From the NCBI GenBank assembly GCA_902500205.1, contig GCA_902500205.1_4868.1: a stretch of DNA of 64,000 nt; one strand, 5' to 3'. The stretch is from Escherichia coli (GTDB taxonomy: Bacteria > Pseudomonadota > Gammaproteobacteria > Enterobacterales > Enterobacteriaceae). Below are positions 13,233 through 63,237 of the stretch, in pieces. The notes beneath the pieces are model-generated. The model did not search any database. It had not been told where the DNA came from and worked only from the letters and a program-made list of their open reading frames with translations. How positions within the stretch are numbered: position 1 is the first letter of the stretch; the number at the start of each line of letters is the position of its first letter. The translations under genes were made by a program, and so were the position numbers.

Positions 13233-16200
13233 ATGATTTTTCTGAAACAGTTTAACCAGCGCTTTACCGTGCGCAAGACCGATGAGTTCGGTCGTCCGCG
13301 TATTATCCCGCTGGAGAAGCTCCAGCTCCCACGTGGTTCTATCTACCACACCATCGATTTAGACCAGGTGGTTTTAGCACCACCGTTAACCACACCATGT
13401 TTTGGTCAGCTGGAAAAACCGGCGATGATTCGTCACCACTTCCAGCTGCCTGAAGACGGCATTATTGGCCACCCGCGTAAGAAACCGGTTGTTGGTCAAG
13501 AGCGCCAAATCTTCCAGTACCATCGTAACAACCGTCGTATTCGTCGCATGATTGAAGACGGCGTGGTACGTTCCGATCCGAAAGTGCTGCTCATCGAAAA
13601 CTACACCCCGATGCTGCCGCATTATTTCTACCCTGATACTCTGATGTCCTGGTACGAACGTCTGCACAACATTCAGCTGCTGATAACTAACCAGATGAAA
13701 ACTGACTCACGTGAGTACATGCGTCAGAACTACTACATCATCGAACTGGGTAACGTACTGCCTTCTTTCGATCGTTTTAAAATGACGTATAACGATCGTG
13801 TTAAAACCAAACTGGAGCGCTTTAAGGACTTTAATCTCCTGTGGTTACTGGAACTGTTCGGTTGGGCTTACGGCGATCAGCAAGCAACCCTGTTTGACGG
13901 TATGGACATGAACCAGCTGTCACGTGTGAACTTTATCTTCACGCACAACGGTGGTTTTACATCCATGAACATGGGTGTAATTGAAAGAATGCGTAAGTCT
14001 GCCGGTGGTCGTTTGACTGACGTGCAGATGGGCAGAATGTTCTACCGTACACTGACTACTGTGATGACCACACCGCCGTCTACCGACTACGAAGATGACG
14101 AGTTCGTTACACCGGAAGGGGACGAACGCGTACATCTGGGAGAGGACGACGATGTTGTTGAAGCCGTTGCCAGTAAACCGGAAGAAACCCTCGATATCGT
14201 CGACGATGAAGCAACACAAAGCGACAACGTTGACGATATATTGAACGATCATGAGTTCGATGAGAAAGAAGATCTGGTCATCGAAGCGCCGAAAGAAGAT
14301 GTCAAACCAACCACCATCGTCGTAGAACGCACCATCCCACACGATGCTGTGATTAAACAGGAAGTTGAGCGCCTGGCAGAAGCGGGCCGCGTCACCGCCA
14401 AAGCGTATCAGTTCCTGAACGAATCTTCTAAACGTTTCGTAAACTTACCCAACCCGTACAATCCTAAAGAGACGTACGGCGAAGGCCTGACCATCGATCC
14501 GAAGAAACTCGAAGTTAAAGCCGAGCCTAAGAAGATTGAACGCTTAGTTACGGATGAAGCCTGGGCGGAAAATACCACCGACCAAATCATTCGTCAGTAC
14601 AACCAGGAAATCTTCCCGAAAGATATTCTGGGGGCAGTAGCGTCATCCCAACGTCTTGGTTTAGCGATTCACAATCACACTGTCGAGAAAGAGATTTCCG
14701 TTACCGGGAATATCGAACACCACACGTTGCGTATTCAGCCGATTGGCGGAGAACCAACCACGGTACGTTTCTCAATTCCTGCATTAACCGAAGACGGTAC
14801 TTGGGTTGCAAATGGTGTGGAATATACAATGCGTCGTCAGCGTGTTGATCTTCCTATCCGTAAAGTGTCCCACGATACCGTAGCGTTAACCACTGCCTAC
14901 GGGAAGAACTTTGTCCGTCGCAGTGATAAAGTCGTCAATGATTACGGACGTTGGCTCACTAATGCGATTATTACTCGCGCGGTCGATCCGAAGAACACCG
15001 AAATTACTGATGCAAAACTGGCGAATGTGTTCGATCCGCTGTCTAAACTGCCGCGTCAGTACACCGAGGTGGCACGTCGTGTAGCAGCGTTCAACGCAAT
15101 TGGGTACCAATGGAACTTTGACATTAAACAGAAAGCGGCATTCTTTAACGAAGGGCAACTGGCAGACGCGGACCGTGTCGAGCTGGTACCTGTGGCGAAG
15201 AAACCGCGGAGTCATGTCATCGTCGGTATGGATAAAAACTCCCAGCTCTATCGAGTGGATAAGGATAAGACCGAACCACTGGGTACGCTCGCCGAAGTCT
15301 TTGGCGTGGACACCTCTAAGGCTCCACGTGAAATGACCGAACTGTCACTGATGGGCAAATCAATCTCGCTGGGCTTTGTGTTTGCGTACTATCTCGGGTT
15401 AACCGGGATGTTGAAACACTTTGGTATCAGTTACGAGGTTCTCTCTGTCGGACAACGTATCGATAAAGGTCAGTTCGACTCCATTATTCGTCTCCAGGAT
15501 GCGAAAATTGCAATTGTCTGCGAGAACGATCAACAGAGGATGATTGTCAACGGCTTAGACCGTTACATTAAACATTTTACCACGTATACCGAGTCGGAAG
15601 TTGACCGGGAAGACATTTACCTGAACCTGTTACGCGATGCAGATGGGCTAACACCACGCTACATCAAAGAGCTGAAACTGATGCGGACCGCATTTGTTGA
15701 TGACATGCACGCGCGTATCCTCAGGAAAATGGGCGAGCCGGAAACCTTTATCGGCTTACTGGAGCGTTCTAACGAACTGCTGCAGACGGACCACACGTTA
15801 CCGGAAATTAACGGTGACGAAATGATGTTCATCGGGAACCAACGTATTTCGTATCACATCTACACCGCGATGGTGCGGGCGATGCGTAACTACAACAACG
15901 CGCCTAACTCAAATCGTAAGTTTGAGTTGACGCAGGACATGGTGTGGGGTGCAATTAACTCCGACCCGTCTGTTCTGCTGGCTCCTGGCGCAAACCCGGT
16001 ACAGAACATCAAAGAAAAAGATGTTGTTACCATGGGCGGTACAGGTGGTCGTAACCGCAAGACCATGGTCTACAGTACCCGTGAATTCCAACCGAGCGAC
16101 CTGGGGATTATCTCCGGTAACACGGTCGATAACGGCGACGTAGGTATCACCGCCTTTGCAACAAACAATCCGCGTTACGACACCGTGGACGGCACGACCT

Positions 16201-17438
16201 TTAAAAAGGACCTCGATAAACTGAAGCCAGGTGAGGCACTGTCATTTATTGATGGCTTGGTGCCGGATACCCTGATGGACGATGCTAAGCGTCAGAACTT
16301 CGTTGGGATTCAATTCGGTTCTGCGACCAGTTGTGTTGGCGCAACCACCACACCGTATCGTACCGAGCAAGAAAAGTTCGTGGCACACCGTACTTCTGTG
16401 AAGCACGCACGCGTAATCGATAAACCTGGCAAGATTGTGGAGGTTCTTAACGACCACGTTAAAATCAAATACGACGACGGAGAGGAAGAAGCTTTCCCAC
16501 TGGGCCGTTGGTTCGGTCCGCACGAAGGGACTTACTACCCACACACTCTGGTAACGAAATGGAAGCGCGGAGATAAACTCCCTGCCGGTGCCGTTATCAC
16601 GTACAACGAACAACACTTTGAACCAGACATCTACGATCCAACGCAGGTCAGTTTTAAAAACGGGATACTGGCAACTGTCGCTTTGATTGAAGGGGAAGAA
16701 GTAATTGAGGACTCCAACGCCATTAGTGAGCGGTTCGCTGCTAAGGCTGAAGCCGATGTTACCAAACTCAAAGAAGTCACAATGACGTTTACCCAGAACC
16801 TGTTGGAGATGGTAAAAGAAGGGGACCACGTAGACGTGGATTCAATTCTATGCACCTTCACCGACAACCTGACCGGCGATATGAGCGGGTTCAGTAAAGA
16901 AGCAGCGGAAACGCTGCGTGAGTTAAGCTCCTTTGCACCACGCTCTGGTGTTCGTGGGTTTATCGACAAAATCGAAGTGGTTTACCACGGCGAGGTGGAA
17001 GATATGACCCCGTCTTTGGCGGAGATGGTTCGTAAATACGACCGTATACGTCGGAAGACTGCGCTGGCTCTCAAACGTGACGAGCCGAAGGACGGTCGAG
17101 TCAACGGTGATTTTCGTGTTGAGGGGGTGCCGTTAGCGTACAATAGCCTGTGTGTCCGATTCTACATCACACACCGGGTAGAGATGGCAGCAGCGGATAA
17201 GATGGTTATTGCTAACCAGCTGAAAACGACGGTTCAGGAAGTGATGTATGGAACCAACAAAACGGAAGACGGGCAGGAACTCGACATTATCTTTGGTCGT
17301 GATTCCGTCGACGCACGTATCGTAGGTTCTATCATGCGCATCGGAACCACCAACGCTGTCGGGTATCGTGGTGGGGAGAATATCGGACGCATCTTAGATG
17401 GTGAAGACGTCCCAGCCTTGCCGGCTAAAATCAACTAA
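13233..17438 (+). CDS. large protein (1401 aa), function unassigned; possibly RNAP-associated
   Basis: Long ORF immediately downstream of beta-prime-like gene; no motif I can name confidently. Confidence 0.8.
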   Translation: MIFLKQFNQRFTVRKTDEFGRPRIIPLEKLQLPRGSIYHTIDLDQVVLAPPLTTPCFGQLEKPAMIRHHFQLPEDGIIGHPRKKPVVGQERQIFQYHRNNRRIRRMIEDGVVRSDPKVLLIENYTPMLPHYFYPDTLMSWYERLHNIQLLITNQMKTDSREYMRQNYYIIELGNVLPSFDRFKMTYNDRVKTKLERFKDFNLLWLLELFGWAYGDQQATLFDGMDMNQLSRVNFIFTHNGGFTSMNMGVIERMRKSAGGRLTDVQMGRMFYRTLTTVMTTPPSTDYEDDEFVTPEGDERVHLGEDDDVVEAVASKPEETLDIVDDEATQSDNVDDILNDHEFDEKEDLVIEAPKEDVKPTTIVVERTIPHDAVIKQEVERLAEAGRVTAKAYQFLNESSKRFVNLPNPYNPKETYGEGLTIDPKKLEVKAEPKKIERLVTDEAWAENTTDQIIRQYNQEIFPKDILGAVASSQRLGLAIHNHTVEKEISVTGNIEHHTLRIQPIGGEPTTVRFSIPALTEDGTWVANGVEYTMRRQRVDLPIRKVSHDTVALTTAYGKNFVRRSDKVVNDYGRWLTNAIITRAVDPKNTEITDAKLANVFDPLSKLPRQYTEVARRVAAFNAIGYQWNFDIKQKAAFFNEGQLADADRVELVPVAKKPRSHVIVGMDKNSQLYRVDKDKTEPLGTLAEVFGVDTSKAPREMTELSLMGKSISLGFVFAYYLGLTGMLKHFGISYEVLSVGQRIDKGQFDSIIRLQDAKIAIVCENDQQRMIVNGLDRYIKHFTTYTESEVDREDIYLNLLRDADGLTPRYIKELKLMRTAFVDDMHARILRKMGEPETFIGLLERSNELLQTDHTLPEINGDEMMFIGNQRISYHIYTAMVRAMRNYNNAPNSNRKFELTQDMVWGAINSDPSVLLAPGANPVQNIKEKDVVTMGGTGGRNRKTMVYSTREFQPSDLGIISGNTVDNGDVGITAFATNNPRYDTVDGTTFKKDLDKLKPGEALSFIDGLVPDTLMDDAKRQNFVGIQFGSATSCVGATTTPYRTEQEKFVAHRTSVKHARVIDKPGKIVEVLNDHVKIKYDDGEEEAFPLGRWFGPHEGTYYPHTLVTKWKRGDKLPAGAVITYNEQHFEPDIYDPTQVSFKNGILATVALIEGEEVIEDSNAISERFAAKAEADVTKLKEVTMTFTQNLLEMVKEGDHVDVDSILCTFTDNLTGDMSGFSKEAAETLRELSSFAPRSGVRGFIDKIEVVYHGEVEDMTPSLAEMVRKYDRIRRKTALALKRDEPKDGRVNGDFRVEGVPLAYNSLCVRFYITHRVEMAAADKMVIANQLKTTVQEVMYGTNKTEDGQELDIIFGRDSVDARIVGSIMRIGTTNAVGYRGGENIGRILDGEDVPALPAKIN

Positions 17439-17485
17439 TGTAGGGCGGGTCGCTCCCGCCCGGTAAATAAACTCCGGAGTTAATA

Positions 17486-17779
17486 ATGGGAATTTTAGAT
17501 ACGCTCAAGCAGCAGCATGGGATTCCGGTGGGCCGTAATAGCACGAATCCGGAAACGGAAGGTTATTCCCCACAGCAACGCATGAACTTTGTTGTTCTGG
17601 GCAATGCGGTTGAATTGGCCACCGAAATTATTCACGGACTGCTGAAGGGCAGCAATGGCCTGTCTGACCGCATGGGCGATCAGCGTTTGCTGAAACGAGA
17701 CATCGCTGATATGGTGGGTGCGCGTATTACTGGTCGCATCCAGGATTCTATCAGCACCAAAAACGGGGGTCAGGCATGA
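17486..17779 (+). CDS. small hypothetical protein (97 aa)
   Basis: ATG with GGAG 6 nt upstream; stop overlaps next start (ATGA). Confidence 0.5.
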   Translation: MGILDTLKQQHGIPVGRNSTNPETEGYSPQQRMNFVVLGNAVELATEIIHGLLKGSNGLSDRMGDQRLLKRDIADMVGARITGRIQDSISTKNGGQA

Positions 17780-19251: not shown

Positions 19252-19266
19252 TAAAGAGAGGTGGTC

Positions 19267-24166: not shown

Positions 24167-24655
24167 ATGGCTGAAGTAACTTCAATGAAAGCACTGCACA
24201 AACTGATCGCTGAACTGGACACGCCGGCAGCAACCCTGTCCGAAGACCTGGCGCTGAATGCTGAGCCGCTGGTTAAGATTTACGAAGAAACACTCCCCGT
24301 AACGAAAGTTGGGGATGTGGACTATCGCTTCACACTGGAAGACGCGGACGCTCTGCGACAGCACGACGCAAACTTCACTGAACTGTTCGGTGGCATTGCC
24401 GGTGGTCTGATTGCTGACCGTGCGAAAGCGGATAGCGAAATCGGTGCACTGGACTTAACGCTGGATATCGGTAACGCAGCATTCTCTACCGTGTTCTCTC
24501 GCCCGGTTACTGAAAACCCAACTCAGAAAGAATGGGCAGCGTCCATCTCTTACGGTTACGGTTCTCCAAAGTCTAAAGCGTTGGAAGGCAAGCTGCGTAA
24601 AGAGTTTGCCAAGTCCATGATGGCAACTGATGAAGAAGACGAAGACGACGAATAA
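24167..24655 (+). CDS. abundant small acidic protein (162 aa, C-terminal DEEDEDDE)
   Basis: Conserved leader plus AAGGAAT RBS; codon usage strongly skewed to CTG/CGT/GGT/AAC. Confidence 0.75.
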   Translation: MAEVTSMKALHKLIAELDTPAATLSEDLALNAEPLVKIYEETLPVTKVGDVDYRFTLEDADALRQHDANFTELFGGIAGGLIADRAKADSEIGALDLTLDIGNAAFSTVFSRPVTENPTQKEWAASISYGYGSPKSKALEGKLRKEFAKSMMATDEEDEDDE

Positions 24656-25665: not shown

Positions 25666-26541
25666 TTAGCGCATCTGGTTGGCCATCTGCTCGTCGGAGA
25701 CAGAGTTGTAGCCACCTGGGGTTGCGTTGACGTCCGGGTTGATACCATCGGTCTGCTGAGACGGAGTGAGCCACAGTTTGCGTTCGTAAGGACGCAGACC
25801 GTACAGCTTCATACGGTCCAGCTCTTTCGCAGCGGCCTGCATCGGACCCCAACCTGTCCATTGCTGGGAGGTAAAGGCGATTGACAGTTCGTTAATCTGC
25901 GGACCGGTGTTGGTTTCACGCTCACCGATATCCTGGCCAGCGGTTTCCGGAATCATGTTCGTTAACCACCACGCGTTCTGCGGTTTACGCTGATACGCAT
26001 CTGGCTCGATGAACAGCACGGTCATGCTGTACATATCCGGCAGGTGGTCAGGAACGTTCGGGTTGATTGCGGCCAGGCCTGGGTGACCAGTCTGGGGATC
26101 ACAAACACCGTAAACCAGCCACGCCCACAGCATGTTCTGGTACACCTTCCCGAGTTTATCCGGGGTGGTGAAGGTAACAGAGGACAGTGCTTCCGTTACC
26201 AGACCAGCTTCATACTGGGTACGGTTGTTACGACCCTGCTGAGTTTCAACAGCCGCATGGCTCAGGGTTTTATCCAGGCCAGTAATCTCGGAGTGAACCT
26301 CGATAAAGGACTTGATAGCCTGACGCCACATCTGCGGGTTCGGCATGTAATCCACCCAACGAGGGAATTCCATGACACGCGCAATGACGTTACGACGCAG
26401 ACGAGAGGCGTTAGTAACGAACTTGCCAACCTGTCCAACCGGGCCGTTTTGGCCCGAGGAGAACGCGTTGACCATATCGTACTGGCCGCCGTCGACGTGC
26501 AGACCCTGATCAGGCAAAATGAGACGATCTTTGATTGCCAT
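25666..26541 (-). CDS. tail tube protein candidate (291 aa)
   Basis: Directly downstream (3-nt gap) of sheath-sized gene on same strand; size typical of myovirus tube protein; assignment by order and size only. Confidence 0.7.
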   Translation of the reverse strand: MAIKDRLILPDQGLHVDGGQYDMVNAFSSGQNGPVGQVGKFVTNASRLRRNVIARVMEFPRWVDYMPNPQMWRQAIKSFIEVHSEITGLDKTLSHAAVETQQGRNNRTQYEAGLVTEALSSVTFTTPDKLGKVYQNMLWAWLVYGVCDPQTGHPGLAAINPNVPDHLPDMYSMTVLFIEPDAYQRKPQNAWWLTNMIPETAGQDIGERETNTGPQINELSIAFTSQQWTGWGPMQAAAKELDRMKLYGLRPYERKLWLTPSQQTDGINPDVNATPGGYNSVSDEQMANQMR

Positions 26542-39905: not shown

Positions 39906-40150
39906 ATTGATCCTGTGGATCGGGTCGAAGACCCTTTCCTTATACGCGTGCGCGTGCGCGCACCCGTATCCTCCAGGATCTTTTAAAATATATAATAATA
40001 TTAAATATAATAATACCTTTAGGTATTATATTTAATTATTATAATTATTTATATAAATAAATATATTAATATATTAAGATCTTAAAACGCGTGCGGGCGC
40101 GCGCGTGATCCTTATTAAGAGATCGTGATCGGACGGAAGACCGAGATCGG
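39906..40150. other. origin-like dyad element: AT-rich core flanked by alternating-GC boxes and 8 GATC sites
   Basis: ACGCGTGCGCGTGCGCGCAC (39944-39963) and CGCGTGCGGGCGCGCGCGTG (40088-40107) flank a 96-bp core of about 95% AT with dyad centre near 40019; 8 GATC in 240 bp. Confidence 0.45.
39981..40076. repeat. AT-rich low-complexity core (ATA/TAA repeats) with central inverted repeat
   Basis: Arms ATAATACC / GGTATTAT around TTTA centre; bounded by GATCTTTTAAAA and AAGATCTTAAAA. Confidence 0.6.
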
Positions 40151-42212: not shown

Positions 42213-42288
42213 AGGAAAGTGACGCAATTGGTAGCGTACCGGTCTCCAAAACCGGCTGTTTAGAGTTCGAGTCTCTACTTTCCTGCCA
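42213..42288 (+). tRNA. tRNA-Trp (anticodon CCA) with encoded 3-prime CCA
   Basis: Hand-folded cloverleaf: 7-bp acceptor AGGAAAG/CTTTCCT, D-arm ACGC/GCGT, anticodon stem CCGGT/ACCGG with loop CTCCAAA, T-arm TAGAG-TTCGAGT-CTCTA, discriminator G then CCA. Confidence 0.85.
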
Positions 42289-43636: not shown

Positions 43637-43706
43637 GGCTTTGTAGCTCAGGTAGGTAGAGCAGCCTCTTCGAGGAAGGTCGCCGGTTCGAGACCGGTCA
43701 AAGCAA
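43637..43706 (+). tRNA. degenerate tRNA-like element (possible pseudo-tRNA)
   Basis: Canonical D-arm (TAGCTCAGGTAGGTAGAGCA) and T-arm (CCGG-TTCGAGA-CCGG) but mismatched anticodon stem, 1-nt variable loop and G1-A72 mismatch. Confidence 0.3.
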
Positions 43707-45132: not shown

Positions 45133-45154
45133 AGATAGATATTACCTAAGTGAG
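45133..45154 (+). promoter_or_regulatory. recurrent promoter-like motif AGATAGATATTACCTAAGTGAG
   Basis: Family member; about 55 nt upstream of ATG at 45207. Confidence 0.4.
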
Positions 45155-48098: not shown

Positions 48099-48118
48099 AT
48101 AGATATTATCTTCGTGAA
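48099..48118 (+). promoter_or_regulatory. recurrent promoter-like motif ATAGATATTATCTTCGTGAA
   Basis: Family member; about 25 nt upstream of operon start at 48142. Confidence 0.4.
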
Positions 48119-52251: not shown

Positions 52252-54531
52252 GTGGACTACAATTCACCATTTCGTCTTAGTCAAGACGAGTATCATCGCG
52301 ACATTGACGTTATCGATGCGTACTACGAACAACTGGCGCTCTACATTCATACCGTCACCAACGGGAAATATTCTTTGGAGTTCTGTCGACAGCAGGTCGA
52401 AGAAATGTTCCAACCTGGTGGTGAGTTAGTACACGAATTCCCCGTGTGTAAGATGTGGGTGCGCAATCAAAAGACCGGCGATCGCGAAGAAAAATACACC
52501 ACGGTAGATAAACTGTTCCGTACAGTGATTGATAAGCAGATCATTTCTGCACCGTCGTTGACTTTCTATTTGCCGGAACACGTAAAGCGTTCTAAGCTTG
52601 CCGAATTTACCGCAGAGAACGTGCGTAAGCGTGCGGTGGTTAAGAAAGAGATGTATGCGGCCGGTGCTGCAGGCAACGAAGTTTTACGTATTAACAAAAA
52701 GAACGAACAGAACGCTGTTAAAACGCTGAACAACGGGATGTCTGGTGCATTCTCATCACCGTACACGGTAATCTTTAACCAGTCTTCGCACTCTGTATTG
52801 ACGTCAACCTGCCGTACGGCTACATCGTTCGGTAACGCGGGCAACGAACGTCTACTGGGCGGTAATCGTCACTACGACACGCCGTCCCGTGTTATCGACC
52901 ACTTACTGTCTATTGGTACACTGACTAACTTTGCGGAGTTCAAGAAGTGTATGGAACTCTATAACCTCCACTACCCAACAGTGGACGAGGTTATGGAAGT
53001 GGTTATGTACTCTGCAGAGTTTTACTTCCGTAACGACGAAGGGCTGGAGTTCATTCGTCACTACGTCGGTAATTGTAGCCCGCTGGTACGTGCAGCGTTT
53101 GTCTACATGGGTGACTTCTACCACCTGGCGAAATACAACGATGAATTCATGCGCGGATTTATCGGTGCGCTGATTGCCGAGGAGATGGAAGACGAGATCA
53201 CCGATTGGGATGCTGCTGAGCGCTCTATCGACGGTGACATGCAGATCATTATCTCGCAGTTCCGTACTGATATCGTGCCGTTAGGTAAGTCGTTCTCTGA
53301 CGTTAAACTCAAAGACGAAAACACGAACAAAGCGGAACCGTGGGATAAGCAGGAAAAATACAAAGAGCTGATTCGCTCAGCTGTGTATCTGCAGAAAACC
53401 ATCGGTAAGTACGCGTGCTTGATTCGTAATATCCTGACCACCAAAAACCTGCCAATCAACATTGCCAGGATGCCTGATGTGGTTCGTCGTGTTGGCGTGG
53501 TGTCTGATACCGACTCCACGATGATGACTGCACAGTGGTGGGCGCAGTGGTATACCGGTCAACATTACGGTCGTGAAGCTACGCGCGTATCGGATGCGAT
53601 GATTTATATCGCAACCCAGCACTTACGTCATCTGATGGCGAGTATGTCGGCGAATATCGGTGTGGCGAAAGAGCGTCTGTTTTTGTACGCAATGAAGAAC
53701 GAATTTAAGTTCGACTCCTTTGCGTTAACCACGAAAGCAAAACACTATTTCTCCATCATCACTGGCCAGGAAGGGCAGTTGAAGTCTGACCCTGAGTTAG
53801 AAGTTAAGGGCGTGTCTTTACGTACGTCGAACATTCCTCCGGTGGTCATGAAAGAGTTCAAACGCACGATCAAAGAACTCTGTGAGATCGTGGCACGTGG
53901 TGACAAGATTAAGATTCTGCCTCTGCTGGAAAAGGTTGCTGCAATTGAGCACGTTGTGGTGGACTCTATTCGTGCTGGTAAAGCAGGCTACCTGAAAACA
54001 ACCAACGTCAAAGACCGTAGTGCGTACTCTGAAGATGATGAAAAGAGTTACCACTACCACCGCATGTACAACGCTATCTTTGGACCGAAGTACGGCTACC
54101 TGGACGAACCGCCTTATGACGCCGTGAAGCTTCCGGTAAACCTGGAGAACAAAACAGCCGTTAAAGAGTGGCTGGAAAACATTAAAGACCCGATGATTAA
54201 GACCACCGCAACACGGTGGTTCGAAGAAAACAACTATCGTACCTATCGTACTCTGATACTGCCAGAGTTCCTGGTGGAAAACTTCGGTATTCCGCCGGAG
54301 CTGATTGATGCTGCAGACACACGTCGAAGCGCATTCTCCACAGTAGAACCTTACTATCACATTCTGGAATGTCTGGGTGTGTTCATGATGGACAAGAATA
54401 GAACTCGTCTGCTTTCGGATTACTACGGTGAGTCTGTAGATTCCGTCAAGGAAGAATTAGGTAGTGGTGAGTACGTTAAGAAATCTGAACGTGATGGAGA
54501 GGAAGAAGATGGGGAAGAAGCGGAGGAGTAA
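52252..54531 (+). CDS. hypothetical protein (759 aa)
   Basis: GTG start with AAGGGG 6 nt upstream (no in-frame ATG upstream); long ORF. Confidence 0.8.
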   Translation: MDYNSPFRLSQDEYHRDIDVIDAYYEQLALYIHTVTNGKYSLEFCRQQVEEMFQPGGELVHEFPVCKMWVRNQKTGDREEKYTTVDKLFRTVIDKQIISAPSLTFYLPEHVKRSKLAEFTAENVRKRAVVKKEMYAAGAAGNEVLRINKKNEQNAVKTLNNGMSGAFSSPYTVIFNQSSHSVLTSTCRTATSFGNAGNERLLGGNRHYDTPSRVIDHLLSIGTLTNFAEFKKCMELYNLHYPTVDEVMEVVMYSAEFYFRNDEGLEFIRHYVGNCSPLVRAAFVYMGDFYHLAKYNDEFMRGFIGALIAEEMEDEITDWDAAERSIDGDMQIIISQFRTDIVPLGKSFSDVKLKDENTNKAEPWDKQEKYKELIRSAVYLQKTIGKYACLIRNILTTKNLPINIARMPDVVRRVGVVSDTDSTMMTAQWWAQWYTGQHYGREATRVSDAMIYIATQHLRHLMASMSANIGVAKERLFLYAMKNEFKFDSFALTTKAKHYFSIITGQEGQLKSDPELEVKGVSLRTSNIPPVVMKEFKRTIKELCEIVARGDKIKILPLLEKVAAIEHVVVDSIRAGKAGYLKTTNVKDRSAYSEDDEKSYHYHRMYNAIFGPKYGYLDEPPYDAVKLPVNLENKTAVKEWLENIKDPMIKTTATRWFEENNYRTYRTLILPEFLVENFGIPPELIDAADTRRSAFSTVEPYYHILECLGVFMMDKNRTRLLSDYYGESVDSVKEELGSGEYVKKSERDGEEEDGEEAEE

Positions 54532-55204: not shown

Positions 55205-56272
55205 TTATTTTTCTTCTAGCTCTGTCATCAACGGGATAATCAAATCGCGTTGGATGAAGTTATAGAAGGATTTGGTCAAACGTGTGAGGACTTTAGAGTC
55301 CACATAACGCGCCAAATCAACCAACATCGTACGTTTGTGTTTCTCCATATTCCCCTGGTTGTATTGAAGACAAAACAGTGCCCAGTACCAGTTCACCATG
55401 TTCTGGTGCCAGGTGTTCTGCAGTGTTTGACCTGGTTCTCGAAAGACAATCAGTTCCAGTGCAGTGTGGCCTTCTTCATCAGGGTGTTGGAAGAACAATG
55501 GGATGTTGTTTAAGACTTGTCCCGGTAACGGGTTGGCAGCCAGTAGTTTACTACGGATGCCTTTTGCGTGCTTCACAGCTAAAGCTTGAAGCGGCGGAAC
55601 AGGAATGACACGTAATGTTTCATCCGGTTCAATCTCTTTCCCGAAGGCTATCGCACGATGTATATTTACAAAGGCGATATCCATGTAGCTCGGCAACATG
55701 CGAGAGATCACATGTCGTTGGAGATACACAGGTGTGGCAATAGGTTCGGTACCGCGACTGTAGTGCTGCTGGCCTTTGACATATTGCCAAAGCAAAGCAA
55801 CCAGGTTGATTTCGATCACCGTAACACCTCGGGGCCGTCCGTCACCGAACTTCCAATTGAGGTTGGTATACTCATGGTAGAGGTAACGGGCGGGGGTGTA
55901 GTCGCGGAACGAAAGGTCTGGATTTACTGGGCGGGCTACGAGAGAGATTACCTCATCTTGGCCCTGGATAAACTTGCTATTAAAGATTTGACCGTACTCA
56001 CCAACAGACGTCAAGCGTAAGGCGTTACCGATCTGAACAAGCTTGCGACGGCAAGCCCATTCGATGTCTTCGTACTCTGGTTCACCGGCATAGCCGATGG
56101 CAGACAACACCTGTTGCAACAAATGGCCATTACCAGCACTGCGATTAAGCTGTTCGAAGTAGTTGCGTATACGCTGGCTGTTGTTTTTTACGTGAGCCGC
56201 TAATGTTATAGCGGAGGGGTCCGTGCTGTGACCCTTTATGGCCACTTGGTTTAACTCGGCTTGGCTGAACAT
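55205..56272 (-). CDS. hypothetical protein (about 355 aa)
   Basis: Track ORF 55205..56293 begins with GTG; ATG at 56272 has TAAGGAG 6 nt upstream. Confidence 0.75.
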   Translation of the reverse strand: MFSQAELNQVAIKGHSTDPSAITLAAHVKNNSQRIRNYFEQLNRSAGNGHLLQQVLSAIGYAGEPEYEDIEWACRRKLVQIGNALRLTSVGEYGQIFNSKFIQGQDEVISLVARPVNPDLSFRDYTPARYLYHEYTNLNWKFGDGRPRGVTVIEINLVALLWQYVKGQQHYSRGTEPIATPVYLQRHVISRMLPSYMDIAFVNIHRAIAFGKEIEPDETLRVIPVPPLQALAVKHAKGIRSKLLAANPLPGQVLNNIPLFFQHPDEEGHTALELIVFREPGQTLQNTWHQNMVNWYWALFCLQYNQGNMEKHKRTMLVDLARYVDSKVLTRLTKSFYNFIQRDLIIPLMTELEEK

Positions 56273-56323
56273 GGCAGACTCCTTAGATTCCACATAGGAA
56301 GTCAGTCACAGTCAAAAATATCT

Positions 56324-56348
56324 CAGATTGATATTATCTATGTGACAG
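56324..56348 (+). promoter_or_regulatory. recurrent promoter-like motif CAGATTGATATTATCTATGTGACAG
   Basis: Family member upstream of the abundant 617-aa protein gene. Confidence 0.4.
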
Positions 56349-56419
56349 TTCCTGAGAAATGTCTGGACTATGTGCCTTGTAAGTAAGCGACGGCGTACTT
56401 GCATTCCATGGAATTACAG

Positions 56420-56439
56420 GCAGATATTATCTCTGCGAA
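56420..56439 (+). promoter_or_regulatory. recurrent promoter-like motif GCAGATATTATCTCTGCGAA
   Basis: Second copy about 40 nt upstream of ATG at 56479, followed by conserved leader. Confidence 0.4.
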
Positions 56440-56478
56440 CCGAACTATGATTGCAATCACTATTAAGGAATATTTAAA

Positions 56479-58332
56479 ATGGTAAAAATCGTTGACTCTA
56501 ACAACAACGCTCAGCAGAACAACACTCAGACTCAAGACACCGCACCACTGGGCGGTCTGGGCAACGAGACTGTAAAAGTGCAAACTGCTGTGCCGGGTAC
56601 TTCTACTGTCAGCCAATTCGATAACGCATTTGGCATCCGCAACATCAGCACCTATGCAATGCACTTCGTCAACCTCCTGGACGAGCTGAAGAAAAGCAAC
56701 GAATACCTCAACGCGTTCCGCTGGGGCACCATCGCCGGCGTGGGTAACGAAATGGGTTCCGCGGCGTATGTCGCAGGCCAGTGGCAGGGCCACTGGCTGT
56801 ATGGTATCATCTTCTTTGAACGCGGTCAGTCTCTGCGTCTGAAAGAAACTACCAACAACGGCCAGGAAGACTACTACACCATCACTGAACTGTTCAACAA
56901 AGACGTGCTGGCAGTAGTACAGAAAAACATCATGGAAGCGCATGGTCTGACCAATGCGAACTTCATGATCATCAACTCCGTACCAGACCTGGGTAAAGTT
57001 CTGGATGCTGAGTGGGCACGTACTCTGATGGGTCAGATGATGATGGGCATCTTCGGTCGTATCGCAGGCTACCTGGGTACGCTGAACCTGCGTAAGCATG
57101 ACCGTTATCAGGCTGCAGTAATGCCGCTGGAAGATGGTGCGGTTGTGGATGCTAACGGCCACGCACAGCGTGCTGATTTCGCAATCACCGTTGAACACAG
57201 CCCAAGCAACGTAACCGACGCCACTCCGACTCTGCTGGACACCAATCAGGTACAGGTGTATCCGCGTGTATCCGGTACTGGTTTCGTCAATATGCGTTTC
57301 ACCGGTCAGAAGCCTGTCGTTAACGGCGTCTACGACCTGAAACAGCTGCAGGCTGAAATCGTAGTAAGTCTGATCGATTCTCAAACTGAAGGTGCAATGG
57401 CACCGTATGAACGTCAACTGCTGCTGCTGGCTGCATTTGCAGAAATCGCGGCAATCGGTGGCTGGCGTGACCTGTTTGTGAAACGTCTGAACAAACAAGA
57501 TCGCAAGTTCTCCCGTGTGGCAGAATACCTGTCCTGGGGCGCTGACGCTCGTCCTGACGTATCCAAAATCGACGGTAGCCGTGAAGCTATCGAAGGTTGC
57601 CTGGATATGTTCGCACCGCGTGAAGCAGCACTGGTAGTTAGCCATCGTGCCGGTAACGGCCTGGGTGGTCTGTCTACTTTGCTGTCTGAAATTGCGGTCG
57701 GTTACGACAACTCTCTGAAACAGCTGCTCGCTATTCTGAATTCCATGTCCCCGCGTGATCAGAACGGCGAAGTTGTTGCAGCGACCAGCTTCACTGCAGT
57801 ATTTGCTTCTGCACTGAAAGCACAGCTGGGCGATGCCTTCAATGGTACCATCCATTGCAGCCACATCGTGAAAGCAGCCGTACCGACTGTTTCCGGTGTT
57901 TACACCGGTACTGCACAGAAACGTAGCTTCCAGGATATGGACCTGATTTCCGTTGTTACCAAACTGGGTGATAACGCGAACGACGTCTATAGCTACCTGA
58001 ACGCACAGTCCTACAGCCACCGTGAACTGAACGAGCGTCAACAGCGTATCTACATGCTGAAACTGGCCGCTTCTCTGTTCGCATCCAAAGCACCGCAAGC
58101 TACCGGTGAATCTCTGGATATGGCTATCAACCCGATCTTCGGTAAATGCCTGCTGGACTTCGTCCGTAACAACTGCACCTGGTCTATGACTGGTGTAAAT
58201 GCCTACAACACGATGGCGACCTCTCTGTTCTTCAACAACGGTGGGGAAGACTTCACGCTGTCTGGCAACGGCCTGTCTGCAAGCGGTTCCGATTTCGGTC
58301 TGGGCGTGACTCTGAGCAACTTCAAACTGTAA
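56479..58332 (+). CDS. abundant 617-aa protein, candidate chimallin (phage-nucleus shell protein); major capsid protein not excluded
   Basis: Strongly host-optimised codons; conserved leader plus AAGGAAT RBS; directly upstream of a beta-prime-like gene, mirroring the phiKZ shell-protein/nvRNAP-subunit adjacency as I recall it. Confidence 0.8.
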   Translation: MVKIVDSNNNAQQNNTQTQDTAPLGGLGNETVKVQTAVPGTSTVSQFDNAFGIRNISTYAMHFVNLLDELKKSNEYLNAFRWGTIAGVGNEMGSAAYVAGQWQGHWLYGIIFFERGQSLRLKETTNNGQEDYYTITELFNKDVLAVVQKNIMEAHGLTNANFMIINSVPDLGKVLDAEWARTLMGQMMMGIFGRIAGYLGTLNLRKHDRYQAAVMPLEDGAVVDANGHAQRADFAITVEHSPSNVTDATPTLLDTNQVQVYPRVSGTGFVNMRFTGQKPVVNGVYDLKQLQAEIVVSLIDSQTEGAMAPYERQLLLLAAFAEIAAIGGWRDLFVKRLNKQDRKFSRVAEYLSWGADARPDVSKIDGSREAIEGCLDMFAPREAALVVSHRAGNGLGGLSTLLSEIAVGYDNSLKQLLAILNSMSPRDQNGEVVAATSFTAVFASALKAQLGDAFNGTIHCSHIVKAAVPTVSGVYTGTAQKRSFQDMDLISVVTKLGDNANDVYSYLNAQSYSHRELNERQQRIYMLKLAASLFASKAPQATGESLDMAINPIFGKCLLDFVRNNCTWSMTGVNAYNTMATSLFFNNGGEDFTLSGNGLSASGSDFGLGVTLSNFKL

Positions 58333-58360
58333 TCGAATCGGTTACTGAGTAGTTAGGAAA

Positions 58361-58400
58361 CGGACGGGGGCTAACGCCTCCGTCCTTCCCTCTTTTTTTG
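58361..58400 (+). terminator. intrinsic terminator
   Basis: GGACGG...CCGTCC hairpin followed by TTCCCTCTTTTTTTG. Confidence 0.55.
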
Positions 58401-58414: not shown

Positions 58415-59923
58415 GTGAGAAAGGTACCAAAATTCTACGGAATATCCGGCCGGTTGGTTAGTCAGGATAACTATTTGTCCGATTTGCAAATAGAAGCTGC
58501 TGCCAAAGGTATTAAACCACCCACTATTATTAACGATGTCGCCGTTAACGGGGATGCGATCGAGGTTGCTGAACTTATCGATCGCATGGTACAGAACAGA
58601 ATCGTTGACGAAGAACTGAACTCTGCACCGATTTGTAGTTTGGATTGTCCGGCACCGATCGCGCATCGTTACAATCTCGGTTGTAAGTGTCCGACGTGTG
58701 GCTATGTTGTAACTGAACATCGAATTGAATCCGATGTCTGGTTACGTGCACCCGATGAAATGGGTAACTTCGTCAACCCACGATTCTGGGCAATGTTCAA
58801 TGCTTTCTTTAATAGCAAGTTGAAGAAGTTTGAACGTAACAAGGTCACTATCGAACGCGGTAATGACTTGATGATGTGGATGATTGACCCGTATTACCGT
58901 ATAGAAGAACCAGACGGTAAACGCGCACATGCTGTGAAACGTGTATTGGAAGAACATGGTTTCGTTCGTGGCTTGCGCAATCTGGTTGATAACCACGTTA
59001 GTATCTTTAACATCCTTACCACGCCAGAAGCCTGGAAGGAAATCTTCGCACCTAATCGGCATAACGCCGCTGAAGGTGAACGCTTACGTTTACAATGGAA
59101 GGAGCTATTCGAAACGCAACGCCATGCATTCTTCCCAAGACACTTACCGCTAATCTCCTCTAAGCTTATCGTTACTGAGGAAGGTCGTCGTGGTGTCATG
59201 GTAGACCCAGTGTTCACGGGTGCTATCGATGCGGTGAAAAATATCGCGTTACTTTATACGCGGCGTAAAGCGATCGAACCACGTTTTCTGATTAGTCGCG
59301 CTTTGAAAGCCAACCGTCAGTTAACGTACTTCCACATGGACTTCCGTCGTGAGTCTATGGAAGGTAAACCGGGTGACTATCGTGCGAAATTGGGTTCTAC
59401 CCATATCCCATTCGGTGGTCGTGCAACCATCTCACCTATCTCAGAACCACACGATGCCTGGAAGTTAAAAGCACCATGGCGTTGGATGGTTGGGTTGATG
59501 TCGACCCACATCGAGAACAAACTGCTACGACGGGGTTATTCGTCACGGCAATGTGAACGTATCGTTGCAAAAGCGGCAATGCAGTATGACCCGCTTGTAG
59601 ATGAAATCTTTAAAGAACTGATTCGTGAATCCCCAGGCGGTCTTGGGATCATGGTCATACCGCTACGTAACCCAACGCTGGTACAGTTGTCTATTCAAAC
59701 GCTGTACATCGATGAAGTTGTTACCGATGTTAACCAGTGTTCGCTGCGTATCTCTGACCGTGTGATCAAGATGGCTAACGGTTCGAAAAGAGCCCCATCG
59801 GACGGGAAACCTCTGATGCGTATTCTCCTGAAATGCTGGGAAACCCTAAAGCGTATCTACCAGAAATGGGGACGAAAGTCTGAAACAACAGATACGATGG
59901 CCTACGCTAAACAATACTGCTAA
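58415..59923 (+). CDS. RNAP beta-prime-like N-terminal subunit, 5-prime exon (frame reads on into candidate intron before stopping)
   Basis: Zinc-ribbon pattern CSLDCPAPIAHRYNLGCKCPTCG near residue 73-95; LRNPTLVQLSIQTLY resembles beta-prime NRAPTLHRLGIQAF; NADFDGD absent from this ORF. Confidence 0.75.
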   Translation: MRKVPKFYGISGRLVSQDNYLSDLQIEAAAKGIKPPTIINDVAVNGDAIEVAELIDRMVQNRIVDEELNSAPICSLDCPAPIAHRYNLGCKCPTCGYVVTEHRIESDVWLRAPDEMGNFVNPRFWAMFNAFFNSKLKKFERNKVTIERGNDLMMWMIDPYYRIEEPDGKRAHAVKRVLEEHGFVRGLRNLVDNHVSIFNILTTPEAWKEIFAPNRHNAAEGERLRLQWKELFETQRHAFFPRHLPLISSKLIVTEEGRRGVMVDPVFTGAIDAVKNIALLYTRRKAIEPRFLISRALKANRQLTYFHMDFRRESMEGKPGDYRAKLGSTHIPFGGRATISPISEPHDAWKLKAPWRWMVGLMSTHIENKLLRRGYSSRQCERIVAKAAMQYDPLVDEIFKELIRESPGGLGIMVIPLRNPTLVQLSIQTLYIDEVVTDVNQCSLRISDRVIKMANGSKRAPSDGKPLMRILLKCWETLKRIYQKWGRKSETTDTMAYAKQYC

Positions 59924-60126
59924 CGGTTGTGATAATGGGTAATCAGCAGCGAAGCCTCGTGAGAGGAACGTTCAACGACTATCGCTGAAATGCGAGTAGG
60001 GGTCCCAGTGGACTTCGAAGTGGGAGAACACCTAAGGCGATAGCTATGGTGAAGATATAGTCTGTGCCTTATCGAGAGATAAGGAGGGTGTCTTAGCACA
60101 CCTGCTGTATACGGAAACGGTATACG
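59762..60126 (+). mobile_element. candidate group I self-splicing intron (no internal ORF); boundaries approximate
   Basis: Elements resembling group I Q, R and S in order: AATCAGCAGC (59941), GTTCAACGACTATC (59970), GAAGATATAGTC (60051); GACTAT/ATAGTC can pair as P7; GNRA-capped hairpin CCTTATC-GAGA-GATAAGG (60067-60084). Confidence 0.6.
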
Positions 60127-60366
60127 GTGGACAAACAGGATTTCGATGGCGACCAGTTCCAGGTACGTTTGCCAGTCGATGAAACTGAGATGAAGTTGGC
60201 GCTCCAATTCCGTCCAGATAACGGCTTTATGTCTTCTACTGATGTGGACCGCGTAGAACACGGCATGGTTTTACATAACGAGCTAATCAGTATGCAGAAC
60301 CAGTTCCTTATTGAAGCAGATGAGGATGATGAAGAAGGCATTCCGTTGGAAGCGGTGATGGGCTAA
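60127..60366 (+). CDS. 3-prime exon of the beta-prime-like gene, carrying the catalytic DFDGD motif
   Basis: VDKQDFDGDQFQVRLP matches NADFDGDQMAVHVP; no ATG or credible RBS of its own (track start is GTG). Confidence 0.65.
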   Translation: MDKQDFDGDQFQVRLPVDETEMKLALQFRPDNGFMSSTDVDRVEHGMVLHNELISMQNQFLIEADEDDEEGIPLEAVMG

Positions 60367-61431: not shown

Positions 61432-62105
61432 TGAGCCAGGAACCTACATTTAACGGTGTACCGTTAAGTCAGATGAATGAGCAGATGCGCTTTGAGTATA
61501 ACAAACTCAAAGAGATTGAAAAGGATTTGGCGGAAAGCCAGAACGTCTGTAGCGTCTTCACCGAAGCACAGTTCCGACGTCAGGGCTTACCACTGTTGTC
61601 CGGGATGCTTGATGGTACTTTTAACGAAGAGACCTGGACGGCTTACGTAGGAAGTCCATTTGTACCCCTACAGATTGTGGACGATGCTGATAATAGCAAA
61701 CTGCTATTTACCATCCCCGCTCTGCTGAACACCGGCCGCTCGTTAATCACCGTTGACGGCGAACCTTCCCTCTCTGATGAGACTGAGTACATCCGTCGTC
61801 AGGTTGATGTGATTGCAACCGTCGGTGAAACCCAGATGTACAAGATGATCGATTACACCCTAACCGGGATCGAAAATATGTCTCTGGCTGAAAATTCAGT
61901 TCGTGCGAAGTACATTATTGACTTGCTGAACTGGATTTTCCGACGCTACGGTGTGGGTGGTCAATTGCCATATCCGGAAGGGTTGGTTGAATACGTCGAT
62001 AAAATTACTGGCGGTAAAAACACGGCGACAGCTGCAGAGACTTCGGTGCAAGCCCCAGCTCAAACGCAGCCAATCGTAGGGATCGGTGATGGAGAAGATT
62101 ACTAA
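61431..62105 (+). CDS. hypothetical protein (224 aa)
   Basis: TAATG overlap with upstream gene; GAGGA RBS. Confidence 0.7.
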   Translation: MSQEPTFNGVPLSQMNEQMRFEYNKLKEIEKDLAESQNVCSVFTEAQFRRQGLPLLSGMLDGTFNEETWTAYVGSPFVPLQIVDDADNSKLLFTIPALLNTGRSLITVDGEPSLSDETEYIRRQVDVIATVGETQMYKMIDYTLTGIENMSLAENSVRAKYIIDLLNWIFRRYGVGGQLPYPEGLVEYVDKITGGKNTATAAETSVQAPAQTQPIVGIGDGEDY

Positions 62106-63237
62106 ACCTCCCAAGAAACCAGAAGGCGTTAAGCGCCTTTTGAACACTAATGATATCCATTTGTTGCATAAACGTGTGCCCACATGGCACATCGTGGATG
62201 TGATACGTGAGATACTCATTAGCTGCGAAAATACGCTTGACGCCTTTTATATAGCAGGGGATTTATTTGATGATTCCCGACATCTTCGCCAGGAAGATTC
62301 TCAAGAAGCTGTGGGCTTCTTGACGTGGTTGCTCCAGTGGTCTAAGGCCACTAATACCGCCGTTCGCATCGTTGAGGGAACACCGTCCCATGACCACGGC
62401 CAGTCCAAAATAGTTGAGTCGCTGAACATCAGTATAGGCGCAGACTGTTTGTATTTGGCAGGGATCGGGATATTTTACGATCCGGCTCTCGATGCGATGG
62501 TAGGTTGGGTGCAGGACGAATATAAAGCTGCTGGCGTCGATGAAATTAATGCTGCTGCCACTGAGGCAGAAATGGCAGAACTGATGGCGACACGAGGCCT
62601 GGAGAAGTTAGACTTTATCTTCATGCACGGCTGCTTCCAGTTTCAACTCCCTGTCGAGTCCCCTCGTTCTTTCCACGAGGAGTTCTGGTTGCCGAGAGTC
62701 AAGCACCTGATATTTATCGGGCATGACCATCGACCCAAGGAATTAGACAAGATAAGAGTTGTAGGTAGTCCTGAGCGACTATCTCAAGGTGAAGAGGAGG
62801 ACAAAGGCGTAGCTCTTGTCGATTTCACCGATACGGTTGCCAGGGATTATTTCCTGGTTAACCCACGCGCGTGCCCGCAGAAAAAGATTCGGGCACAGGA
62901 AGACTTTGATGCGCAGTTAGCAGCTTGTCTTTCTGCATTAGAATACATCGACAATCATCCTTCGTCCGCTATTGGACGATTTGAAGTCGAGTATTACGCA
63001 GGTTCACCGATGGCCGAATATGTTAGTCGGTGGAAAAAAGAATACACGTTCCACATTTCTGGAGAACGTGTGCGCTCCTCTGAAGAAGAGGAGTTGTTAG
63101 TGAAGAGTTTTTCGAACGAAGCCCCAGTGTACGAAAAACCTACTCCTGAGAACTTCGAACGGTTGGTTCTCGAAGAGCTAACATCAGTGAAGTACGACCC
63201 TGATGTTGTTACTGCAATCATTAGGAAAATAGAATGA
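62089..63237 (+). CDS. SbcD/Mre11-family nuclease (calcineurin-like phosphoesterase)
   Basis: Phosphoesterase motifs in order: DIH, GDLFDD, TPSHDHG, FMHG, IGHDHR. Confidence 0.7.
   Translation: MEKITKPPKKPEGVKRLLNTNDIHLLHKRVPTWHIVDVIREILISCENTLDAFYIAGDLFDDSRHLRQEDSQEAVGFLTWLLQWSKATNTAVRIVEGTPSHDHGQSKIVESLNISIGADCLYLAGIGIFYDPALDAMVGWVQDEYKAAGVDEINAAATEAEMAELMATRGLEKLDFIFMHGCFQFQLPVESPRSFHEEFWLPRVKHLIFIGHDHRPKELDKIRVVGSPERLSQGEEEDKGVALVDFTDTVARDYFLVNPRACPQKKIRAQEDFDAQLAACLSALEYIDNHPSSAIGRFEVEYYAGSPMAEYVSRWKKEYTFHISGERVRSSEEEELLVKSFSNEAPVYEKPTPENFERLVLEELTSVKYDPDVVTAIIRKIE

Follow-up and report, generated by a model that had tools for sequence, protein, structure and literature searches.

Phages that form a nucleus are defined by one protein, chimallin (ChmA). 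They are resistant to DNA-targeting CRISPR and restriction systems, which makes them relevant to phage therapy of Salmonella and E. coli. Structures are available for the chimallins of phages 201phi2-1 (gp105), Goslar (gp189), and PhiPA3 (gp53, also called PhuN), and the counterpart in phiKZ is gp54. Two other phages provide the closest comparisons for the locus described here. In Erwinia phage Asesino, GFP-tagged gp39 (ANZ48052.1) rings the phage DNA, and the capsid protein localizes separately (PMC11724907). In SPN3US, the protein called gp22 is described as plentiful during infection but is not found in mature virions (PMC7552025, PMC7411985). Sheets with a tetragonal p4 lattice are present in lysates of an SPN3US mutant infection (PMC7552025). 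Laughlin et al. 2022 (PMC9365700, Supplementary Table 7) include YP_009153316.1 among the chimallin homologs, as the one from SPN3US. Since this chimallin is already in the literature, its identification is not new, and the practical value of the present analysis is curatorial.

The DNA analyzed here, a stretch of 64,000 nucleotides (the window), comes from an SPN3US-like Seoulvirus, a jumbo phage of Salmonella/E. coli. An open reading frame on the plus strand at 56479..58332, hereafter chmA, begins with ATG and encodes a protein of 617 aa (67.1 kDa, pI 5.7), exactly as a preliminary description of the sequence had it. The start is marked by a Shine-Dalgarno sequence, TAAGGA, read from the sequence 9 nt before the ATG (56464..56469, plus strand), and by an N-terminus (M1, K3) that is kept in 28 homologs. 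The gene is single-copy in the genomes compared. Its product is the ortholog of SPN3US_0022 (gp22; RefSeq ACQ60_gp244/YP_009153316.1), to which it is 99.2% identical and with which it shares the same locus. It is also 64% identical over its full length to Asesino gp39; Asesino and the window phage belong to the same PhuZ-less chimallivirus clade, but Asesino has an Erwinia host and is assigned to the genus Erskinevirus rather than Seoulvirus. The product of 56479-58332 is almost certainly the chimallin with which an SPN3US-like chimallivirus builds most of the shell of its phage nucleus. The preliminary description had guessed at a shell protein from gene order and codon bias; this guess is supported, and neither an HK97 fold nor membership in a different family was found. 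A long antisense open reading frame (56368-58098, minus strand) matches no PHROG and is regarded as a shadow of the codon-biased gene.

The predicted fold of the protein connects it with the solved chimallins. An AF2 model (pLDDT 78, pTM 0.81) was compared with the PDB using Foldseek, and the best nine matches are all chimallins (E 2.6e-19 to 5.2e-16, probability 1.00, 560-587 aligned columns, TM 0.57-0.70), with entries from Goslar (7sqv, 7sqt, 7squ), 201phi2-1 (7sqq, 7sqr, 7sqs, 8igg), and PhiPA3 (8fne); the next match has an E value of 0.013. In structural alignments, identity to these three proteins and to phiKZ gp54 is just 12-14%. The predicted protein consists of a compact two-domain core, which in the model superposes on the solved chimallin protomers, and terminal tails that are predicted to be flexible yet are conserved. 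The N-terminal α/β core domain spans about aa 57-200 (56647..57078, plus strand) and the C-terminal core domain about aa 201-571 (57079..58191, plus strand); both boundaries are approximate. In the model the C-terminal domain has a GNAT-like fold related to the AtaT and TacT toxins. These tRNA-acetylating GNAT enzymes share no sequence similarity with the window protein, which is much larger, and the likeness, which is evolutionary and distant, does not make it a member of that group.

The segments that flank the core can be compared with those of 201phi2-1 chimallin using its published domain limits (PMC9365700). The first 42 residues (56479..56604, plus strand) form a low-complexity tail, rich in N, Q, T, and A and predicted to be disordered (pLDDT 25-33), which is variable and gap-rich in the family alignment (majority fraction 0.24-0.35, with gaps, for aa 11-40). 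In 201phi2-1 chimallin it corresponds to the N-tail (aa 1-47), which is dispensable. Residues 43-56 (56605..56646, plus strand) are a candidate N-terminal interacting segment (NTS) with a conserved FD-x-AFG(W) motif (FD-x-AFG at 47-53); the segment is conserved and gap-free, yet has low confidence in the monomer model, and like the 201phi2-1 NTS (aa 48-61) it lies immediately before the core. It would dock on a neighboring protomer inside the tetramer. At the other end, the C-tail, aa 572-617 (58192..58329, plus strand), contains a candidate linker and candidate CTS1/CTS2 segments (SLF-NNGG...LSGNG...DFGLG...F-L). Although pLDDT falls below 50 for aa 580-604, all of 572-617 is gap-free and conserved, and its length and position match aa 582-631 of 201phi2-1. 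The candidate segments within it would bind neighboring tetramers. The tail sequences themselves are unrelated to those of the solved chimallins, from which the window protein also differs in having a clade-specific glycine-rich motif. Cleavage of the tail linker by the prohead protease, as reported for phiKZ gp54, has no support here: the protein has a single A-X-E, the motif of the SPN3US protease, and this lies in a core helix and lacks conservation, while a GGE at 588-590 agrees with the phiKZ-type S/A/G-X-E motif alone.

At the level of primary sequence, the relationship to established chimallins is detectable transitively, through intermediate sequences, and the direct signal is marginal. 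The 617-aa protein is covered over its whole length by a match to phrog_8316 (E 5.7e-303), a family annotated "unknown function", and has no direct significant match to the HMM of PHROG 4795, "nuclear shell protein". Neither it nor five close homologs match PF25677, Chimallin_Phikzvirus (gathering cut-off 27 bits), at E<=10, and therefore the protein lies outside the version of the Pfam model used, though it is a chimallin by fold; some homologs bear precomputed matches to the newer version, PF25677.3. At this threshold (E<=10), what Pfam returns for the protein and for its homologs is noise alone, such as FliC_D2, and neither phmmer nor a family profile finds a match among PDB sequences at E<=10. 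BLASTP comparisons with phiKZ gp54 and with the syntenic gp208 of Vibrio phage pVa-21 are likewise not significant. An exhaustive search with the family profile, however, reaches the proteins P0045-P0051 (E 5.5e-15 to 1.2e-4), which match phrog_4795 at 1e-18 to 1e-33 and one of which, P0050, passes the PF25677 cut-off. Vibrio pVa-21 gp208 matches both phrog_4795 and phrog_8316. When the intermediates are included, hhalign aligns the family with canonical chimallins at 99.6% probability (E 2.7e-24, 480 collinear columns), a value that is partly circular because the intermediates were found with the query profile; against the three Pseudomonas-phage chimallins alone, the probability is 41% (E 2.8e-4).

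The location of chmA is the same as that of known chimallin genes. The preliminary description had placed it directly upstream of a β'-like gene and had likened this to the shell-protein/nvRNAP adjacency in phiKZ. [quoted passage not shown] The correspondence extends over a block running from the DNA polymerase gene to SbcD. Upstream of chmA are a plus-strand gene at 52252..54531 for a divergent family B DNA polymerase (PF20286, E 4e-284; the counterpart of phiKZ gp50) and a divergently oriented minus-strand gene at 55205..56293 (362 aa, SPN3US gp21; phrog_3938, unknown function). By location, the latter corresponds to phiKZ gp52 and 201phi2-1 gp98, and its position and strand are the same in phiKZ, 201phi2-1, PhiPA3, pVa-21, and Asesino. 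The order of DNA polymerase, a minus-strand gene of ~350 aa, a gene of ~620 aa, nvRNAP β' and, further on, SbcD is identical in these five phages (in Asesino, with minus-strand gp38, gp39 itself, β' gp40, and SbcD gp44), and the gene order of the block matches phiKZ gp50-gp65 exactly. The gene chmA occupies the chimallin position in a conserved replication/transcription block. The window also encodes subunits of the virion RNA polymerase (vRNAP), the counterparts of SPN3US gp240/241. A group I intron (Rfam RF00028 at 59763-60084) splits the nvRNAP β' gene where the catalytic DFDGD motif is encoded; when mapped against SPN3US gp23, the first exon ends at about 59775 and the second starts at about 60139. 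The RNAP gene beside gp22 in SPN3US, unlike that of the window phage, has no group I intron.

Codon usage sets chmA apart from the genes around it. The codon adaptation index (CAI) was calculated using the Sharp and Li weights for E. coli as a proxy for an enterobacterial host. Among the 50 open reading frames of >=100 aa in the window (mean 0.326, sd 0.098), chmA ranks first at 0.666, with CTG used for 93% of Leu, CGT for 85% of Arg, GGT for 61% of Gly, and AAC for 86% of Asn. In 5000 resamples that kept the amino acid sequence and drew synonymous codons at their frequencies across the window, the null was 0.339 +/- 0.018 (z=18), and 0/5000 resamples reached the observed CAI; the two flanking genes sit at their null (z=-1.0 and -2.1). 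The strong codon optimization claimed in the preliminary description is thus borne out, as is its claim of the same bias for the small acidic gene at 24167-24655 (CAI 0.567, rank 3, z=6.2), whose product yields a confident structural model but no fold match in the PDB. Since the other outliers are the genes for the tail tube (rank 2) and the tail sheath (rank 6), CAI in the window tracks expected abundance. Asesino chmA is optimized to a similar extent (CAI 0.662, compared with 0.26-0.45 for its neighbors). The very high expression that was surmised from the codons also agrees with the abundance that has been described for SPN3US gp22 in infected cells (PMC7552025, PMC7411985).

Very high expression would suit other kinds of protein as well. 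Together with a size of about 67 kDa, it fits the HK97-fold major capsid proteins of jumbo phages, which the preliminary description had offered as an alternative; the Foldseek search refutes this identity, the predicted fold being that of chimallin and not HK97, and the likelihood that the gene encodes the major capsid protein is negligible. Abundance would suit a scaffold too, and the Thomas laboratory has proposed that SPN3US gp22 builds the internal scaffold, or core, of the prohead and is removed at maturation. Indeed, gp22 is missing from mature virions and DNA-full heads, and in gradient-purified particles of protease mutants its peptide-spectrum counts are about those of the major capsid protein (PMC7411985). 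However, co-purification of proheads with large sheets of chimallin would account for the mutant-particle data, and tetragonal sheets are seen in lysates of a mutant infection. Typical scaffolds are elongated and helical, whereas the predicted protein is globular, with two α/β domains, one of them GNAT-like. In addition, chmA lies in the replication/transcription block rather than among head genes, the sole A-X-E protease motif (AIE-372) falls within a core helix and is itself nonconserved, and the 64%-identical Asesino ortholog rings the DNA mass with the capsid protein elsewhere. A scaffold role is thus very unlikely.

Instead of being purely a structural shell subunit, a protein with the chimallin fold might mainly or also serve another function, such as acyl transfer by an active enzyme of the GNAT type or the binding of CoA or nucleotides. 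Besides the GNAT-like C-terminal domain, this idea draws on HRAGNGLGGLSTLL (aa 389-402; 57643..57684, plus strand), the most conserved block of the family by column entropy, which resembles GNAT motif A and in the model lies at a strand-loop-helix junction (strand 384-390, helix 398-406). The block is conserved in the SPN3US/Erwinia clade and in proteins P0033-P0041 and is degraded in the Pseudomonas-phage chimallins. The motif match, however, is short and offset by one residue from the canonical R-x-x-G-x-G/A, sequence scans detect no GNAT family, the catalytic residues are missing from published chimallins, and, as the gene is single-copy, no other chimallin is available for the shell that the related Asesino visibly makes, making an enzyme or ligand-binding protein as the primary function extremely unlikely. 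A lesser version, in which SPN3US-clade chimallins retain a working remnant of the GNAT cofactor site and the HRAGNGLGGLSTLL loop binds CoA, acetyl-CoA, or another pyrophosphate-bearing ligand, is speculative and rather improbable; if true, the nuclear shell would be ligand-responsive or enzymatically active, beyond a purely structural role. Alternatively, the loop may be a docking groove for a C-terminal segment.

If the chimallin of the window phage works like those of 201phi2-1, Goslar, and PhiPA3, its very high expression early in infection would come first. Protomers would then assemble into tetramers through the N-terminal segment, and the C-terminal segments would join tetramers into a flexible square lattice, one molecule thick. 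Inside this lattice would be the nvRNAP and the phage DNA as it replicates, and host nucleases would be kept out. The lattice repeat reported for SPN3US is 67 Å, equivalent to 13.5 nm, compared with 11.5 nm for 201phi2-1 and Goslar.

The sequences around chmA contain several candidate expression signals. The TTAAGGAATATT context at its Shine-Dalgarno also precedes the other high-CAI gene at 24167. Jumbo-phage early promoters contain ~10-nt AT-rich conserved motifs centered near -10 (PMC7598289), and by motif matching GATATTATCT occurs twice upstream of chmA on the plus strand, as a proximal candidate element at 56423..56432, 47 nt before the ATG, and as a weak distal one at 56330..56339. There are 8 matches to GATATTATCT at <=1 mismatch, compared with 2.95 expected, and the plus-strand copies (24078, 45138, 48102, 56330, and 56423) all lie upstream of plus-strand gene starts. 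The motif is kept upstream of Asesino chmA, where it is also duplicated. These copies are weak candidates for phage promoter elements, and remain so because the motif did not emerge when intergenic regions were searched de novo for enriched k-mers, the top words being T-runs and one AT-rich locus near 40060. A scan for σ70 promoters and terminators found sites no more often than in shuffled sequence and missed a terminator-like intrinsic hairpin at 58356..58399 (plus strand), which starts 24 nt past the stop codon and ends in a run of seven T residues (58393-58399). Its core stem is GGACGGGGGC-TAAC-GCCTCCGTCC, and the RNA fold has a centroid of -24 kcal/mol (z=-2.15 over a 73-nt stretch). The strong Shine-Dalgarno, the extreme codon optimization, and a dedicated terminator-like hairpin suit a protein of which each cell requires thousands of copies.

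The abundant scaffold candidate of the Thomas laboratory, gp22, and the chimallin of the nucleus literature are the same protein. This identity gives one explanation for three observations: that a protein absent from virions is so abundant, that it purifies along with proheads, and that lysates contain tetragonal sheets. In the GenBank and RefSeq records examined and in PHROG 8316, the gene has no assigned function ("hypothetical protein"). The possibility that the "gp244" of Laughlin et al. is a gene other than gp22 is ruled out by the RefSeq tags, which are numbered in the opposite direction; GenBank SPN3US_0244 is only 240 aa. Thus, "SPN3US gp244" denotes two proteins, the chimallin by its RefSeq tag and a fragment of vRNAP β' in the SPN3US literature.

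The window derives from an SPN3US-like jumbo phage of the genus Seoulvirus. Over the 5.5 kb around chmA (56479-58332, + strand, encoding the 617-aa protein ChmA), Salmonella phages JN03 and SPN3US and Escherichia phage EC001 share 98.5-99.2% identity with the window, and the SPN3US ortholog is SPN3US_0022 (JN641803, 15768..17621). ChmA has tblastn matches in 73 phage records; the gene is labeled "hypothetical protein" in all but one, which carries a spurious DUF label, and it is single-copy in the complete genomes. A preliminary description, made from the sequence alone, had proposed the gene as a candidate for the phage nuclear shell protein, chimallin, with the major capsid protein as the alternative. 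Structural matches to chimallins, a chimallin gene order, and intermediate sequences all support the shell-protein reading, with the gene assigned as the chimallin of an SPN3US-like chimallivirus in the clade without PhuZ.

The chimallin assignment is carried by the predicted structure, with which the sequence evidence is consistent. The ChmA model, built from an alignment of 28 homologs (44-86% identical), has a mean pLDDT of 78 and a pTM of 0.81, with low confidence at residues 1-56 and 580-604. In a Foldseek search of the PDB, the best nine matches to the model are all chimallin chains, from Goslar (7sqv/7sqt/7squ), 201phi2-1 (7sqq/7sqr/7sqs/8igg), and PhiPA3 (PhuN, 8fne), with E values of 2.6e-19 to 5.2e-16, a probability of 1.00, and 560-587 aligned columns; the tenth match has an E value of 0.013. 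The HK97 capsid fold is absent from the matches in either fold search with the model, which excludes the major capsid protein.

At the level of sequence, direct similarity between ChmA and the canonical chimallins is undetectable. BLASTP against phiKZ gp54 gives nothing significant, the protein matches no Pfam family or PDB sequence, and the ChmA family profile finds none among PDB sequences. PHROG 8316, which matches ChmA end-to-end (E 5.7e-303), is annotated as "unknown function". Alignment with hhalign to 201phi2-1 gp105, phiKZ gp54, and PhiPA3 gp53 only reaches no more than 41% probability (E 2.8e-4), yet it is collinear across 412 columns. Judged by profile comparison, intermediate sequences close this gap. 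An exhaustive ChmA profile search reaches proteins of 599-681 aa (E 5.5e-15 to 9.4e-4), most of which have phrog_4795, "nuclear shell protein", as their best PHROG (1e-18 to 1e-33); intermediates of this type also match phrog_8316, as does the syntenic Vibrio pVa-21 gp208, which matches both families. For one intermediate, P0050, the score against Pfam PF25677 (Chimallin_Phikzvirus) clears the curated threshold. The chimallin families are reached by profile search through intermediates rather than directly. When the intermediates are added, hhalign aligns ChmA residues 54-568 with residues 65-576 of 201phi2-1 gp105 (99.6%, E 2.7e-24, 480 columns), a result that is circular in part since some intermediates were found by the query profile.

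In phiKZ, the DNA polymerase gene (gp50) is followed by small genes, gp52 (minus strand), gp54 (626 aa, labeled "nuclear shell protein"), gp55 (the β' subunit of the non-virion RNAP, nvRNAP), and later SbcD (gp65). The same order is present in 201phi2-1 (gp98/gp105/gp107), PhiPA3 (051/053/054), pVa-21 (207/208/209), and Erwinia phage Asesino (gp35/38/39/40/44), and in the window at 52252-54531, 55205-56293 (minus strand), 56479-58332, 58415 onward, and 62086-63237. Given this shared order, the adjacency of shell protein and nvRNAP that the preliminary description gave for phiKZ is correct, with gp54-gp55 corresponding to 56479-58332 and the gene starting at 58415.

The codon optimization noticed earlier for chmA and for the small acidic gene at 24167-24655 is borne out by a codon adaptation index (CAI), calculated for the 50 window ORFs of >=100 aa (mean 0.326, sd 0.098) using Sharp & Li E. 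coli adaptiveness values to stand in for those of the enterobacterial host. In the resampling null, the protein was fixed and synonymous codons were drawn at window-wide usage. ChmA ranks first (CAI 0.666, z 18, 0/5000), with 93% CTG for Leu, 85% CGT for Arg, and 86% AAC for Asn, followed by the tail tube gene (25666-26541; CAI 0.567, rank 2, z 8.4) and the small acidic gene (CAI 0.567, rank 3, z 6.2); the tail sheath gene (26545-28590) has a CAI of 0.468 (rank 6, z 7.0). The index behaves sensibly, because the remaining outliers are abundant structural proteins. The neighbors of chmA have values of 0.322 (downstream, 58415-59923; rank 20, z -1.0) and 0.286 (upstream, 55205-56293; rank 30, z -2.1). 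The pattern is the same in Asesino, where the chmA ortholog has a CAI of 0.662 versus 0.26-0.45 in its neighbors. On the opposite strand, a 576-aa ORF (56368-58098, - strand) lies antisense to chmA and matches no PHROG. The best explanation for it is a shadow ORF that arises from the strongly biased codons on the sense strand.

The 201phi2-1 chimallin consists of an N-tail (1-47), NTS (48-61), NTD (62-228), and CTD (229-581), followed by linkers and the CTS (CTS1, 590-611; CTS2, 622-631). The NTS joins protomers inside the tetramer, the CTS segments join tetramer to tetramer, and deletion of either abolishes assembly in vitro (PMC9365700). In the 28-homolog alignment, ChmA residues 11-40 are low complexity, gap-rich, and variable, an FD-x-AFG(W) motif is conserved within residues 43-56, and a core extends from ~57 to 571. 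Residues 572-617 (SLF-NNGG...LSGNG...DFGLG) are conserved and gap-free though predicted to be disordered. The tails look as should be expected of tail-swapping assembly segments, with putative docking roles. By analogy with the solved homologs, ChmA would self-assemble through tail swapping into a square lattice, forming a shell that would keep host nucleases out. Conservation across the family peaks at HRAGNGLGGLSTLL (aa 389-402; 57643-57684, + strand), where, in the predicted model, a strand of the GNAT-like domain leads through a loop into a helix. The sequence resembles GNAT motif A, the acetyl-CoA-binding motif. This block is degraded in Pseudomonas-phage chimallins; the intact form is specific to the SPN3US/Erwinia clade.

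Laughlin et al. (2022) described SPN3US "gp244" as a diverged chimallin homolog with 10% identity to 201phi2-1, listing YP_009153316.1 and the JN03 protein in Supplementary Table 7 (PMC9365700). In RefSeq NC_027402, where these genes are numbered opposite to GenBank, ACQ60_gp244 is CDS 15768..17621, that is, SPN3US_0022; therefore, the window gene is already on record in print as a homolog of chimallin. GenBank and Thomas-lab numbering, used in the SPN3US literature, instead gives the name "gp244" to the C-terminal fragment of β' of the other polymerase, vRNAP (PMC7598289), whose counterpart is at 19261-19989 (+ strand). Thus, one name denotes two proteins, and our literature search found no paper equating the scaffold candidate gp22 with chimallin "gp244". 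What remains of value here is an annotation correction, a clarification of names, and a new reading of the scaffold proposal. SPN3US gp22 is abundant in infected cells and in protease-mutant prohead preparations, is absent from virions, and has been proposed as a scaffold or core protein (PMC7411985, PMC7552025). Its chimallin fold, its gene position, and its lack of a usable A-X-E site make this role unlikely. In mutant-infection lysates, Heymann et al. observed p4 sheets, whose repeat was 67 A, and asked which protein forms them (PMC7552025), and Laughlin et al. proposed chimallin (PMC9365700). The gp22 observations are most simply read as co-purification of chimallin sheets with proheads. 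GFP-tagged Asesino gp039 forms a ring enclosing phage DNA (Prichard et al. 2025, PMC11724907); this protein, ASESINO_39, is a full-length ortholog of ChmA (64% identical) with the same neighbors.

ChmA has a TAAGGA 9 nt upstream of its ATG, and its stop codon is followed by a 10-bp GC-rich hairpin and a T7 run. The 185-nt intergenic region upstream contains two copies of the 10-mer GATATTATCT, both conserved in Asesino. Copies of GATATTA(T/C/G)CT lie upstream of + strand gene starts at 56330-56339, 56423-56432, 48102-48111, 45138-45147, and 24078-24087 (all + strand), one of them preceding the other high-CAI gene. At <=1 mismatch, GATATTATCT has 8 matches versus 2.95 expected; it was not recovered by unbiased de novo k-mer enrichment. 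Early promoters of jumbo phages have AT-rich motifs of ~10 nt near -10 (PMC7598289), and this motif is a weak candidate for a phage RNAP promoter element.

The adjoining nvRNAP β' gene is interrupted by a group I intron (59763-60084, + strand), which matches the Rfam model RF00028 over its full length (69.4 bits, gathering score 50; E 1.6e-15). The insertion of ~356 nt falls between the codons for NG and DFDGD, the catalytic metal-binding motif, leaving exons at about 58415-59775 and about 60139-60366 (+ strand); consequently, the ORF list shows a truncated 502-aa product and a separate 79-aa DFDGD ORF. Unlike the window, SPN3US lacks the intron; JN03 has it, since it aligns with the window in one piece over the whole 5.5 kb, and the insertions in EC001, Lh1B, SaP7, and Proteus phage 7 are longer still.

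Elsewhere, ARAGORN and Rfam agree on a tRNA-Trp (anticodon CCA, 42213-42288, + strand), and Rfam gives a weak second tRNA match (43637-43706, + strand, 36.4 bits) that ARAGORN does not confirm. At about 39990-40110, roughly at the genome ends of the SPN3US record, a tract of alternating GC (GCGTGCGGGCGCGCGCGTG) comes immediately after ~90 nt of near-pure A/T that contains internal repeats (ATATATTAATATATTA); this locus could be related to genome ends or replication.
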